Shown in pieces: positions 9,701 through 12,708 of a stretch of DNA of 63,634 nt (positions within the stretch are counted from its first letter, which is position 1; each line of letters starts with the position of its first letter). A program made the position numbers and the translations under genes. The notes below the pieces were generated by a model. It was not told the origin of the DNA. It saw only the letters and a program-made list of their open reading frames with translations, and ran no database searches. The stretch is from a virus (lineage: Duplodnaviria; Caudoviricetes). The DNA is taken from the IMG/VR virus record IMGVR_UViG_3300030109_005543, positions 1 through 63,634 of that record; one strand, written 5' to 3'.

Positions 9701-10315
9701 ATGATAACAGCAATTGGCGACGTAATGAGAGAGTGCTACAAGCGCGGTTGGATAACCACCCGTGATGGCAACTGTTCGCTTAGGAGAACAGCTGACTCAA
9801 AAATCTATATCACCCCATCCGGAGTGCGCAAGACCCTCATTCATCCAGAATTTGTGGAATGCTTGCAAGTATCCGATGGAAAGGTGATATTGAAGGAGGG
9901 TGAAAATCCTTCCGGAGAATTGGAAATGCACTGGCAACTCCTAAGAGACGCCGCGAAGACTCGCTGCGTACTGCATGTTCACTCTACAAATATCGTGGCT
10001 GCGATGTATGCCGGCTGGGACCTCAAGAGCATGGCATTGCAATTCCCAGAGATTTATAGATACACCAAAGTGGGACCTAATGTTCCGGTACTCCCTGCCA
10101 TCTCGCAGGCTCTTGCTGACGAAACCTCAAGAGCCTTGGGTTTAAAGGACGGAAAGATCCAGTATGATGTGGTTGGCCAAGGCAATCACGGAGTTTGTTC
10201 CGTTGGTCAAAATCCCTGGGATGCTTTCGAGCATGTCGAAAGACTAGAACATATTTGTCAAATAGTATTGAATTCTGGTGTCAGACCTAGTATAATAAAC
10301 ACAATGCCGGTATAG
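9701..10315 (+). CDS. Class II aldolase/adducin family protein
   Basis: DGNCS, ITPSG, PSGELEMH, HVHS and NHGV motifs. Confidence 0.9.
   Translation: MITAIGDVMRECYKRGWITTRDGNCSLRRTADSKIYITPSGVRKTLIHPEFVECLQVSDGKVILKEGENPSGELEMHWQLLRDAAKTRCVLHVHSTNIVAAMYAGWDLKSMALQFPEIYRYTKVGPNVPVLPAISQALADETSRALGLKDGKIQYDVVGQGNHGVCSVGQNPWDAFEHVERLEHICQIVLNSGVRPSIINTMPV
10268..10296 (+). promoter_or_regulatory. Sigma70-like promoter for tRNA-Thr, inside the aldolase CDS
   Basis: TTGAAT-17 nt-TATAAT ending 10 nt before the tRNA. Confidence 0.65.
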
Positions 10316-10381
10316 CTCAGTTGGTAGAGCAGTTGATTTGTAATCATCAGGTCCCGTGTTCGAATCATGGTGCCGGCACCA
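10306..10381 (+). tRNA. tRNA-Thr(TGT)
   Basis: 76-nt cloverleaf GCCGGTA/TGCCGGC, anticodon loop TT-TGT-AA, TTCGAAT, encoded CCA. Confidence 0.95.
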
Positions 10382-10393
10382 TAAGGACATTAT

Positions 10394-10801
10394 ATGAGAG
10401 AGTGGAGCAACAAGGCACTATTAAAGACATTACCCAATCCCAGCGGTGATGGATATGAAATTAATATTAAGAACCCCGAGGTCACGTTTATAGGTGTAAA
10501 AGATCAACCTGATTTTGCCACAGTGTGGATCGTCTTTTATCCTAAAGACACTATTATAGAACTGAAATCGTTGAAGAAATATTTTCAGGACTTCAGAAAT
10601 CGTTTGCTTTCTTACGAGCGTTTAATTAACGTGGTCTATGATGATCTCATGAAAGTATATGAGCCCCATCGTTTGCGACTTGAAATGGACTTCAACCCGC
10701 GCGGCGGCCTCTCGTCAAAACTTTCTATTGATTCAGATTGGTCGATTCGTGGTGGTGAAGAGAAGTTTGCAGATTGGGCTGGAAAGGATCACCGATGGTA
10801 G
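10394..10801 (+). CDS. queF-like: QueF-like T-fold protein (preQ0 reductase family) lacking the catalytic Cys
   Basis: QPDFA, the QueF motif ELKSLKKY, and PRGG are present; PEVTFIGVKDQPD replaces PEFTxxCPxTGQPD. Confidence 0.8.
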   Translation: MREWSNKALLKTLPNPSGDGYEINIKNPEVTFIGVKDQPDFATVWIVFYPKDTIIELKSLKKYFQDFRNRLLSYERLINVVYDDLMKVYEPHRLRLEMDFNPRGGLSSKLSIDSDWSIRGGEEKFADWAGKDHRW

Positions 10802-11037
10802 AGAAGCAAGATTTAGAGGTATTGGAAGAGGCAGTGGCTGGAGTCTATTTGCGCCAGGCCGAATGTAGGATTGACCCAATTGTTGGACGAACCTATTATA
10901 CTTATTTAAGAGAAGACAAGACATCTTTCATTAGTGTTGTAGAACCAGAATACTGGGACTACAATAGATTTCCCATTAAGTTTGTCTGCAAAGCTACTTA
11001 TAATGAAAGCGGGTGGCGAGAGTTACCTGTAGAGTAA
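10795..11037 (+). CDS. DUF2452-like protein
   Basis: PIVGRTYYTY...FISVVEPEYW pattern; ATG 10795 overlaps the end of the previous gene. Confidence 0.6.
   Translation: MVEKQDLEVLEEAVAGVYLRQAECRIDPIVGRTYYTYLREDKTSFISVVEPEYWDYNRFPIKFVCKATYNESGWRELPVE
10871..10899 (+). promoter_or_regulatory. Possible sigma70-like promoter upstream of the tRNA Ala-Val-Pro cluster
   Basis: TTGACC-17 nt-TATTAT, intragenic. Confidence 0.4.
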
Positions 11038-11048
11038 TAAAACGGTAT

Positions 11049-11124
11049 GGGGATGTAGCTCAGTTGGGAGAGCAGTTGCCTTGCACGCATCAGGCCGCAG
11101 GTTCGACTCCTGTCATCTCCACCA
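11049..11124 (+). tRNA. tRNA-Ala(TGC)
   Basis: GGGGATG/CATCTCC with G3-U70, anticodon loop CT-TGC-AC, CCA. Confidence 0.95.
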
Positions 11125-11129
11125 TTTTA

Positions 11130-11205
11130 GGGCGGTTAGCTCAGCTGGGAGAGCGTCTCGTTTACACCGAGAGGGTCGGGGGTTCGAGCCCCTCACCGCC
11201 CACCA
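11130..11205 (+). tRNA. tRNA-Val(TAC)
   Basis: GGGCGGT/ACCGCCC, TCTCG-TT-TAC-AC-CGAGA, CCA. Confidence 0.95.
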
Positions 11206-11209
11206 TAAT

Positions 11210-11287
11210 CGGAGTATGGCGCAGTCTGGCTAGCGCACCTGCTTTGGGAGCAGGGGGTCGTAGGTTCGAATCCTACTACTCCGACCA
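11210..11287 (+). tRNA. tRNA-Pro(TGG)
   Basis: CGGAGTA/TACTCCG, CCTGC-TT-TGG-GA-GCAGG, CCA. Confidence 0.95.
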
Positions 11288-11312
11288 TTACTCTTCAACA
11301 TTAGGTACACTT

Positions 11313-11492
11313 ATGGATAAAACAACCCGTCGCCGCATCACCGACCTACAGAAAAAGAATGCAGACCTCCGCGCCCTTGTGGACACACTACAGATCGCCC
11401 TGAAGCGAGCACACAACGTCTTAGAGAACACGGACGACTATGACTATGTATTCGCTCAATCAGCCCGCTGGGCGATGAGTGAAAAACTTTAA
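11313..11492 (+). CDS. Small coiled-coil hypothetical protein
   Basis: ATG 11313 after tRNA-Pro; 59 aa, MDKTTRRRITDLQKKNADLRALV... Confidence 0.65.
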   Translation: MDKTTRRRITDLQKKNADLRALVDTLQIALKRAHNVLENTDDYDYVFAQSARWAMSEKL

Positions 11493-11501
11493 TGCATTAA
11501 G

Positions 11502-11509
11502 CCTATTTA
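11502..11509 (+). promoter_or_regulatory. Putative phage late promoter motif CCTATTTA
   Basis: Intergenic, just upstream of 11514. Confidence 0.45.
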
Positions 11510-11513
11510 ATAC

Positions 11514-12305
11514 ATGAGCAATACAGTATTATTATGTGCCCCCATTCACTTTGATGTGATTTACTCTATCAACCCTTGGATGGTTGGTGAGCCAGTTAAC
11601 AGCGCCGTCGCCCTTGAGCAGTGGTTTCGTCTTAAAGATACCCTTGAAGAGTGGGGTGTTAGTGTAAAGCTCATAGGACAAGTGGGTAATCTACCAGACA
11701 TGGTGTTTACCGCCAATGCTGGTACAGTTCGTGGCAATAAAGTAGTTTTAAGCAATTTTAGGTTCCCTGAAAGACAGCCCGAAACAGATGTATATGAGAA
11801 CTGGTTTAAGGAAGAGGGGTATGAAACCTACCGATTGCCAAAGAAGTATAACTTCGAAGGCTGTGGAGACACTGTAATCTCCGGAGATAAGATGTATGCA
11901 GGGTATGGTGTCCGCTCTGACCTTGGCGGGATTCGAAGAGCGGCCAAGATTCTCGACCTGGAACTGATCCCTTTGAAGTTGAGTCACAATAGTTTCTATC
12001 ATCTGGACACCTGCTTCTGTTTATTGAACAATCAGTGTGCCATGTATTATCCCGGAGCCTTTACACCTTCTGCACTGAAGAAATTACGCAAACATATTCC
12101 AGATCTGATTCCGTTAGATGTTCATGATGCAGCTCATTTCGCAGCAAATTCAGTAGTTTATCAAGAAAATAGAGTCCTCATGCCAGCTGGCCCACAGAAG
12201 ATCGTCGAGGAGCTGGACATCAGAGGCGTTGAAGTTACACACATCAATACAAGCGAGTTCCTAAAGTCCGGCGGCTCGCTACAATGTATGACACTATGGA
12301 TATAA
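11514..12305 (+). CDS. Amidinotransferase/dimethylargininase (pentein) family protein
   Basis: PDMVFTANAG, EGCGD, YHLDTCF and GGSLQCMT motifs (Cys-His-acid catalytic set). Confidence 0.9.
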   Translation: MSNTVLLCAPIHFDVIYSINPWMVGEPVNSAVALEQWFRLKDTLEEWGVSVKLIGQVGNLPDMVFTANAGTVRGNKVVLSNFRFPERQPETDVYENWFKEEGYETYRLPKKYNFEGCGDTVISGDKMYAGYGVRSDLGGIRRAAKILDLELIPLKLSHNSFYHLDTCFCLLNNQCAMYYPGAFTPSALKKLRKHIPDLIPLDVHDAAHFAANSVVYQENRVLMPAGPQKIVEELDIRGVEVTHINTSEFLKSGGSLQCMTLWI

Positions 12306-12634
12306 CACCTTACTGCTACAACGCGTTGATTACGAAGGTTTATGATGGTGACACTGTAACAGCCCTCGTTGATTTAGGCTTTAAGATCAAGACCACAATA
12401 AAAGTTAGATTAGCCGGGATCAACGCACCGGAAGTCCGCGGCAAGAGCAGGCCTGAAGGATTGAAGACCAGAGATTTCCTTAGAGATCTTATCCTAGATC
12501 AAGAGGTCATAATTCAGACACAAAAAGATAAAAAAGGTAAATATGGTCGTTATATTGGTGTAATATATCTGAAAGACAAGAATGTTAACGAACTATTAGT
12601 AGAAAAGAAGTTAGCAGTAAAGAAAGAATATTAG
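12284..12634 (+). CDS. Thermonuclease (SNase-like)
   Basis: KVYDGDTV, VRLAGINAPE and GKYGRYIG motifs; the start could be ATG 12296. Confidence 0.9.
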   Translation: MYDTMDITPYCYNALITKVYDGDTVTALVDLGFKIKTTIKVRLAGINAPEVRGKSRPEGLKTRDFLRDLILDQEVIIQTQKDKKGKYGRYIGVIYLKDKNVNELLVEKKLAVKKEY

Positions 12635-12708
12635 CGGGTGTAGCTCAGTGGTAGAGCATCGCCTTGCCAAGGCGAGGGTCGTGAGTTCGAATCTCATCAC
12701 CCGCTCCA
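12634..12708 (+). tRNA. tRNA-Gly(GCC)
   Basis: GCGGGTG/CACCCGC, TCGCC-TT-GCC-AA-GGCGA, U73, CCA. Confidence 0.95.

Follow-up and report, generated by a model that had tools for sequence, protein, structure and literature searches.

In a 63,634-nucleotide (nt) stretch of DNA from an uncultured, myovirus-like marine phage (IMG/VR virus record IMGVR_UViG_3300030109_005543; the whole stretch of 63.6 kilobases (kb) is called the window here), two protein genes share their stop codons with the transfer RNA (tRNA) genes that follow them. A class II aldolase-like gene ends ten bases into the gene for tRNA-Thr, and the gene for a staphylococcal-nuclease-like (SNase) protein ends on the very first base of tRNA-Gly. 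Both overlaps are real. The best explanation, to which we give a probability of about 0.65, is stop-codon borrowing among small protein genes and tRNA genes that lie mixed, very densely and on one strand: the overlaps would be a by-product of packing, and not a device serving the phage's mini-tmRNA, a molecule that comprises only the tRNA-like domain (TLD) of a transfer-messenger RNA (tmRNA). An earlier reading of the sequence alone (the sequence-only reading) had proposed that tRNA maturation would turn the messenger RNAs (mRNAs) of both genes into stop-less messages whose output depends on trans-translation. The mechanism is plausible and had already been published; the regulatory role and the tie to the mini-tmRNA find no support in the comparative data. 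What is new here is how deeply one of the two junctions has been conserved and that three different genes make use of it, in a group of phages carrying tmRNA or mini-tmRNA genes.

Two stop codons within tRNA genes

The aldolase reading frame ends ...AAC ACA ATG CCG GTA TAG, and its TAG (10313-10315) occupies positions 8-10 of tRNA-Thr, the 5' end of which is placed at 10306 by both ARAGORN and Infernal/Rfam. The overlap is 10 nt long and draws the last two sense codons (CCG GTA), together with the stop, into the tRNA. At the second junction the SNase frame ends ...GAA TAT TAG; the G of this TAG, G12634, is position +1 of tRNA-Gly, again by agreement of the two programs, and the overlap is 1 nt. 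In the list of open reading frames (ORFs) neither gene has an in-frame stop earlier than the shared TAG. Both placements had been put forward by the sequence-only reading, and the ORF list and the two tRNA programs bear them out; the ends that it predicted for the upstream messages after a cut at tRNA +1, ...ACA AU for the aldolase and ...UAU UA for the nuclease, are likewise exact readings of the sequence.

Could the overlaps be artefacts of annotation, with ORFs that are not real genes or tRNA 5' ends that are misplaced? Nine overlapping ORFs from a general viral sample (among the matches listed) do look spurious, which lends the suspicion some colour. Here, however, it is refuted by the Pfam domains and conserved relatives of both ORFs, by the agreement of two programs on the tRNA 5' ends and by the lack of an earlier in-frame stop, and we consider an artefact next to impossible. 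The DNA of the window is present in marine metagenome runs; among the runs listed for 7400-13600 there was none of RNA. Both junctions are spanned by contigs from four marine DNA runs, one of which covers 9600-10332 with 0 differences and another 12170-12707 with 23, and there is no mismatch at the junction bases among the differences listed for those contigs.

Conservation of the two junctions

A protein-guided scan of IMG/VR returned 32 viral loci with a relative of the aldolase, in 12 of which a tRNA-Thr gene lies behind it (loci are given by our numbers, L001 and so on). In the four closest relatives (L001-L004, 80-88% identity) the aldolase always ends on the same TAG at tRNA positions 8-10; the residues past ...SGVRPS are variable (IINTM, IITRM, IITST, IMNKT), and the terminal PV is supplied by the tRNA. 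In more distant relatives, L005-L009, at 69-74% identity, the aldolase stops on a TGA of its own and is followed by a conserved gene of 70 amino acids (aa), the start of which overlaps the aldolase stop (ATGA) and the end of which falls on the TAG at positions 8-10 of tRNA-Thr. The stretch before tRNA-Thr in these loci had been entertained as a spacer with a promoter, which proved wrong, the stretch being the conserved 3' end of the 70-aa gene. In L011-L013 the aldolase stop lies 46 nt upstream of tRNA-Thr.

Five members of the 70-aa family were aligned, and a rescan with them returned 13 loci. In all ten where the gene is complete and tRNA-Thr stands behind it, it ends on the TAG at tRNA positions 8-10, at identities down to 43%, and L005 makes an eleventh; one locus is cut by a contig end, and a distant homologue, at 35% identity, ends on its own TAA with no tRNA following. 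The 70-aa protein (L205-L214; for example 4001-4213 in L205) has an invariant GTT, YNF, SPE.YL and W, and its last residues (PV, PA, PR) track the acceptor-stem variants of the tRNA; it gave no match in Pfam or PHROGs. The gene is absent from the window, and the comparison indicates that it was lost in the window's clade. A third gene uses the same stop. In L063, which has neither the aldolase nor the 70-aa gene, an 89-aa ORF ends on the TAG; it is a homologue of window ORF 9407-9697 (41% identity, E 1e-16), and ARAGORN puts the start of this tRNA-Thr one base earlier, which would make the overlap 11 nt. Homologues of the same window ORF stop 4 and 23 nt before tRNA-Thr in L072 and L081, respectively.

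Counted by contig and with the window included, the 10-nt tRNA-Thr overlap is found at 17 of 22 junctions, behind the aldolase, the 70-aa gene or the 89-aa ORF, and always in the sole frame in which tRNA-Thr gives an early stop. The junction is old in the phage group and was retained while the gene upstream of it changed. It is possible that the three versions share an origin, in that internal deletions may have spared the final codons of the 70-aa gene. The ends of the upstream genes share S-[IV]-[IVLM]...P-[VA], but nucleotide and protein alignments of them are not convincing. A pairing of base -1 with the discriminator, seen in the window as U-1:A73 in tRNA-Thr and A-1:U73 in tRNA-Gly, was dropped as a candidate feature: L002-L004 have C at -1, and the pairing is not conserved.

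The 1-nt overlap of the nuclease junction is kept in two of three close relatives (L002, L003), so that conservation, which the sequence-only reading had named as a check, holds at both junctions, and in this sense the overlaps exceed chance. In the third (L001) the SNase gene is absent, and an amidinotransferase-like gene ends TAG-T, 1 nt before tRNA-Gly. The SNase gene of L207 and L209 ends ...KKEY TAA with no tRNA behind it, and that of the window, L002 and L003 ends ...KKEY-TA followed by the G of the tRNA; G1 of tRNA-Gly thus replaced the last A of TAA in the window's clade, leaving the SNase protein unchanged. In relatives with a full tmRNA (L205, L207, L209) the tRNA array is contiguous, in the order Thr-Ala-Val-Pro-(Gly)-Ser, with the SNase gene behind the array. 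As the gene stands before tRNA-Gly in the window, the island must have been rearranged in the window's clade. The array is also seen as an unbroken Thr-Ala-Val-Pro-Gly-Ser series in L075, L205 and L207; in the window's clade it is split by two cassettes, one of the QueF-like and DUF2452 genes and the other of the 59-aa ORF with the amidinotransferase-like and SNase genes. The same QueF-like and DUF2452 pair lies behind tRNA-Thr in L081.

Packing, processing and the mini-tmRNA

Between 9.4 and 13.5 kb every gene of the window lies on the + strand, and five tRNA genes are interspersed with small protein genes (ARAGORN, ORF list and Pfam). Across the window, 27 of the 58 distances between consecutive + strand ORFs of at least 90 aa are negative, a count inflated by the first-start rule; protein genes thus lie as close to one another as to the tRNAs. 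Elsewhere in the group the gaps between a coding sequence (CDS) and the tRNA behind it are 0 (tRNA-Asn in L060 and L078, tRNA-Asp in L069), +1 (tRNA-Ala and tRNA-Gly in L066), +4, +11, +23 and +40, and they form a continuum around zero. At the junctions with a gap of 0, a cut by RNase P would leave the stop codon as the last three bases of the mRNA.

In such a mosaic, a tRNA could supply a missing stop in either of two ways. T8-A9-G10 is present in most bacterial-type tRNAs, so that a gene abutting one in the right frame would end on TAG, as at tRNA-Thr; alternatively, as at tRNA-Gly, G1 of the tRNA would turn the gene's own TA into a stop. TAG stands at positions 8-10 in 268 of 423 distinct tRNA sequences from all loci collected, a count biased upward by the inclusion of 80 loci chosen by the TAG pattern; it is the commonest triplet there, and any stop triplet is found in 290. 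Within tRNA-Thr, frame 2 stops at 8-10, frame 3 at 36-38, and frame 1 is open throughout. Since only frame 2 offers an early stop, a gene that loses its spacer survives best in that frame. Protein conservation runs to W65 of 70 in the 70-aa gene and to ...SGVRPS in the aldolase, where four or five free codons are left. Once formed, the overlap would therefore be frozen, because the tRNA fixes the TAG and only two to five unconstrained codons upstream are available for an earlier stop. This double constraint explains the conservation, and persistence needs no selection for the overlap itself.

RNase P cleaves at tRNA position +1. No terminator was predicted between the upstream genes and the tRNAs and there is no room for one, from which we infer that the genes are co-transcribed with the tRNAs; for both tRNAs the cloverleaf is the minimum-free-energy fold in the context of the co-transcript. 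The unprocessed precursor would then be the working message, on which ribosomes trailing the polymerase would terminate on the TAG with the tRNA still attached. A terminating ribosome would cover and unfold the 5' acceptor strand and the D arm, making termination and tRNA folding mutually exclusive. After the cut at +1 the upstream mRNA would have neither a stop codon nor a protective 3' structure; ribosomes left on it would stall and be rescued by host, and perhaps phage, systems, and the mRNA would decay from its 3' end.

How the arrangement works is probably best judged by analogy with secG-leuU of E. coli (Mohanty and Kushner, NAR 2008, PMC2241853), which is a model for the junctions and not a family to which they belong. 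There too a protein gene lies upstream of a tRNA, and a single RNase P cut forms the 5' end of the tRNA and frees the upstream mRNA. According to that paper, co-transcript and released secG mRNA have half-lives of less than 30 s, decay starts at the 3' end and proceeds via PNPase with PAP I, and the 14-nt spacer is kept in 8 of 40 (about 20%) mapped 3' ends, the others lying inside the coding region. Unlike the junctions of the window, which have no spacer and a shared stop, secG ends on a stop of its own, 14 nt short of leuU, and the tRNA is followed by a terminator. By this analogy the cut mRNA is probably doomed whether its stop is shared or lies 14 nt upstream, and the overlap as such would add little. 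In the proposal that the RNase P cut yields a non-stop mRNA, the predicted loss of the stop follows from the chemistry of RNase P; on the secG-leuU precedent the overlap itself is probably of little consequence.

The stops might instead be largely kept, if tRNA-Thr came mainly from a promoter of its own embedded in the 3' end of the aldolase gene (10268-10296; transcription would be expected to start 1-4 nt upstream of +1) and read-through transcripts were poor substrates for RNase P. The candidate agrees with the consensus at 10 of 12 positions and ends 9 nt before tRNA-Thr +1. Its TATAAT is invariant in all five members of the clade (the window and L001-L004), and 5 of the 10 codons at the site do not vary among the five sequences, as against 27 of 142 gene-wide. 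The stop codon also lies within one ribosome footprint of the 5' half of the tRNA, so that terminating ribosomes may prevent the acceptor stem and D arm from folding, and a perfect sigma-70 consensus (TTGACA-17-TATAAT, 12/12) at 14601-14629 (+), in the 3' part of the PhoH-like CDS 13506-14825, makes embedded promoters plausible in this genome. Yet sites this close to the consensus are frequent (27 in 8 kb, where 16.7 would be expected), the excess at synonymous sites is not significant when about 20 windows are allowed for, and the equivalent stretch in relatives with the 70-aa ORF has no good -35 box. No comparable promoter-like site was found before tRNA-Gly, and an embedded promoter would not stop upstream transcripts from entering the tRNA. 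We regard this route as unlikely.

Several points weigh against packing as the explanation. The tRNA-Thr overlap, at 17 of 22 junctions, behind three genes and always in the same frame, has persisted to a much greater degree than would be required of a casual by-product. The group is also unusual. In a general viral sample (80 loci among the matches listed, not random, many of them looking like GC-rich prophage or host-border DNA; a rough guide), an ORF of at least 60 aa ends inside a tRNA at 8 of 68 evaluable sites; none of the nine overlapping ORFs of this sample has a Pfam match, and all have the look of GC-rich DNA read in the wrong frame. Family-supported overlaps thus number 0 of 68 in the viral sample (among the matches listed) and concern about 0.2% of bacterial t(m)RNA genes, 250 of 115,660 being reported to have a Pfam-positive same-strand CDS entering from upstream (PMC4131195). 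Every overlap-bearing contig with enough flank, moreover, has a tmRNA or mini-tmRNA nearby (5 of aldolase type, 7 of 11 of the 70-aa type, and L063), and L011-L013 form the sole lineage that lacks both an overlap and, within +-3 kb, a tmRNA, which as one lineage proves nothing. The timing of the RNase P cut relative to translation, finally, is taken by analogy from secG-leuU.

The mini-tmRNA itself lies 2.0 kb upstream of the aldolase gene. Read from the sequence, it has the acceptor stem GGGGGUG/CACCUCC, with G3:U70 and the discriminator A73, and ARAGORN found no tag reading frame in it; an acceptor/T-arm module with G3:U70 and no tag frame is what marks a TLD-only tmRNA. It was aligned with its counterparts in L001, L003 and L004, and a pattern scan found such a mini-tmRNA in 33 viral contigs, among them all four relatives in which the aldolase overlaps tRNA-Thr (L064 and L002 being one contig). 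Other relatives carry at the same place a full tmRNA of 313-316 nt with the tag ANDA(N/D)YGLALAA or ANEADYGLALAA. Mini and full forms alike sit just past homologues of window ORFs 6367-7209 and 7216-7554; with the same site and the same neighbours, the mini-tmRNA is the positional orthologue of the full tmRNA, and it looks like an in-place reduction of it. Phage tmRNAs are reported to be rare (402 of 18,146 phage genomes; PMC9004378). Mycobacteriophage DS6A is listed with a TLD-only tmRNA in Table 2 of PMC4131195, where such a molecule is stated, citing Mao et al. 2009, to inhibit tmRNA. The phage RNA of the window resembles it in being little beyond the tRNA-like domain of a tmRNA; phage group and habitat differ, and unlike that of DS6A the mini form here occupies a locus where relatives carry the full tmRNA.

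The functional link that had been suggested between the overlaps and the mini-tmRNA is not supported by their distribution. The tRNA-Thr overlap occurs alongside a full tmRNA in six relatives (L205, L207-L211) and alongside a mini-tmRNA in the window's clade, L213 and L063, whereas two contigs with a mini-tmRNA lack it, L072 (4-nt gap) and L081 (23-nt gap). An initial correlation, in which the overlap seemed confined to mini-tmRNA contigs, was rejected after the 70-aa gene had been recognised in full-tmRNA contigs; on these comparisons there is no specific association of the overlap with the mini form.

The overlap could nonetheless be a selected limiter of expression: RNase P would make non-stop mRNAs, trans-translation would set the amounts of the aldolase, the 70-aa protein and the nuclease, and the phage tmRNA or mini-tmRNA would decide between tagging and sparing. 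Deep conservation of the junction behind three different upstream genes is what such a limiter would explain, although the double constraint accounts for it as well. A tmRNA or mini-tmRNA does accompany the overlap wherever the flank suffices, the mini-tmRNA retains G3:U70 and A73, the mini form is found in 33 viral contigs, and PMC4131195, quoting Mao 2009, reports inhibition of tmRNA by TLD-only molecules; the overlap, however, accompanies full as well as mini tmRNA, two contigs that have the mini form lack it, and a trans-acting inhibitor of tmRNA would hit all decaying mRNAs, not these two alone. The overlapped genes have no common functional theme, and the secG-leuU mRNA meets the same fate with no overlap at all. 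We hold a limiter of this kind to be distinctly unlikely. In a bolder form, the 5' end of tRNA-Thr would be kept as a stop so that excision of the tRNA acts as a switch, after which the upstream message is no longer productive; the phage tmRNA would set the fate of the last stop-less products, and the tag-less mini form would block tagging or add alanine only. This we consider very unlikely.

Stop-codon borrowing by packing also sits within a known phenomenon, and the idea that tRNA maturation makes non-stop mRNAs is not new, having been published for bacteria in 2014. Hudson, Lau and Williams (Front Microbiol 5:421, PMC4131195) surveyed 2031 bacterial genome projects with the same question, drew the parallel to arfA and described smpB running into ssrA in Carsonella; their Table 4 gives 44 Helicobacter FTSW_RODA_SPOVE genes that overlap tRNA-Ile, which we take as a sign that genes of importance can carry overlaps of this sort. 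At the level of sequence the junctions of the window have the make-up of that class, namely a Pfam-supported CDS, a downstream same-strand tRNA and a stop codon wholly or partly inside the RNA gene, and they invite the same maturation prediction and the same arfA analogy. Whereas the overlaps of that survey are bacterial and rare, those described here belong to a phage tRNA island in which two of three island-entry junctions overlap, and one of them has been kept group-wide behind three genes, beside a phage tmRNA or mini-tmRNA. Among the records listed, a literature search found no paper on stop-codon overlaps between a CDS and a tRNA in phages.

In arfA, a cut by RNase III yields a non-stop form of the mRNA, the product of which is held down by trans-translation (Garza-Sanchez 2011, cited in PMC4131195; PMC10107115). 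The junctions are alike in that an endonuclease site upstream of the stop would give a stop-less message and a tmRNA-dependent product; they differ in the enzyme and its target (RNase III at a hairpin in arfA, RNase P at a tRNA here) and in being known from sequence alone. ArfA, moreover, is itself a rescue factor, whereas the aldolase-like enzyme and the SNase-like nuclease have no known tie to rescue; a product acting in ribosome rescue, the mark of an arfA-type case, is found at neither junction.

Mitochondrial genomes offer another parallel, tRNA punctuation, in which tRNAs directly flank the mRNAs, their excision releases these and incomplete stops are completed by polyadenylation. By analogy, the SNase message would end in UA, and one added A would make UAA; unlike those messages, that of the aldolase would end in the AU of a codon AUG, beyond repair by the addition of A. 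In bacteria, polyadenylation mainly marks RNAs for decay.

Gene layout and wider meaning

The record is estimated to be about 40% complete. PHROGs matches in the window include baseplate-wedge, PhoH and glycosyltransferase genes; two very long + strand ORFs, 35614-40953 (1779 aa) and 46214-55000 (2928 aa), are found in the structural region, close to a baseplate-wedge gene. In blastn, 9400-13000 matched phage records at the tRNAs alone, and tblastn with the aldolase gave one weak match, at 25% identity, in an unannotated record; no annotated cultured relative emerged from these searches. The features of the tRNA island are collected in Table 1.

Table 1. Coordinates of features in and around the tRNA island of the window, with the full tmRNAs of three relatives
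Feature	Position	Strand	Support and remarks
Mini-tmRNA, tRNA-like domain only, 82 nt	7594-7675	+	Rfam tmRNA 67 bits, E 6e-24
Class II aldolase-like CDS, 204 aa	9701-10315	+	Pfam Aldolase_II, E 4.8e-29, residues 7-189
Promoter-like TTGAAT-17-TATAAT within aldolase 3' end	10268-10296	+	10/12 consensus match; a lead only
tRNA-Thr(UGU), CCA encoded	10306-10381	+	ARAGORN; Rfam tRNA 66.2 bits
QueF-like CDS	10394-10801	+	Pfam QueF, 2.1e-21; start 12 nt past CCA end of tRNA-Thr
DUF2452 CDS	10774-11037	+	Pfam DUF2452, 5.5e-9; stop 11 nt short of tRNA-Ala
tRNA-Ala(UGC), tRNA-Val(UAC), tRNA-Pro(UGG); spacers 5 and 4 nt	11049-11287	+	ARAGORN, Rfam
59-aa ORF	11313-11492	+	ORF list
Amidinotransferase/DDAH-like CDS	11514-12305	+	Pfam DDAH_eukar, 5.2e-16; ADI, 1.1e-9; 22-nt overlap with SNase start
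SNase-like CDS, 116 aa	12284-12634	+	Pfam SNase, 2.9e-12; PHROG 452 endonuclease, 1.4e-29
tRNA-Gly(GCC), CCA encoded	12634-12708	+	ARAGORN; Rfam 74.3 bits
Full tmRNA of L205	2006-2319		
Full tmRNA of L207	1441-1756		
Full tmRNA of L209	1980-2293		

The genes are as closely set behind these RNAs as before them. The ATG of the QueF-like gene lies 12 nt past the encoded CCA of tRNA-Thr (10382-10396), ORF 12725 starts 16 nt past tRNA-Gly (12709-12727), and ORF 7686 starts 10 nt past the mini-tmRNA (7676-7688). These short gaps contain the Shine-Dalgarno-like AAGGA and AAGGGAG, so that 3' processing of the tRNAs would take place beside ribosome-binding sites. Between the mini-tmRNA and the aldolase gene, ORF 8582-9166 (+), of 194 aa, has a zinc-metalloprotease-like HELGHALGF motif (HExxH) and a hydrophobic N-terminus, and is conserved in L063, L072, L081 and L213.

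If the bolder reading were true, this would be the first virus to time or limit gene expression by tRNA processing and its own tmRNA variant. The group also provides a natural series in which the cost of a shared stop can be set against that of a spacer: the same tRNA-Thr, three genes, gaps of -10, +4, +23 and +46, and a full, a mini or no nearby tmRNA. If the overlaps are a by-product of packing, gene callers should let phage genes end within the first ten bases of a tRNA, where T8-A9-G10 is a ready-made stop, and such junctions can stay stable over long evolutionary periods.

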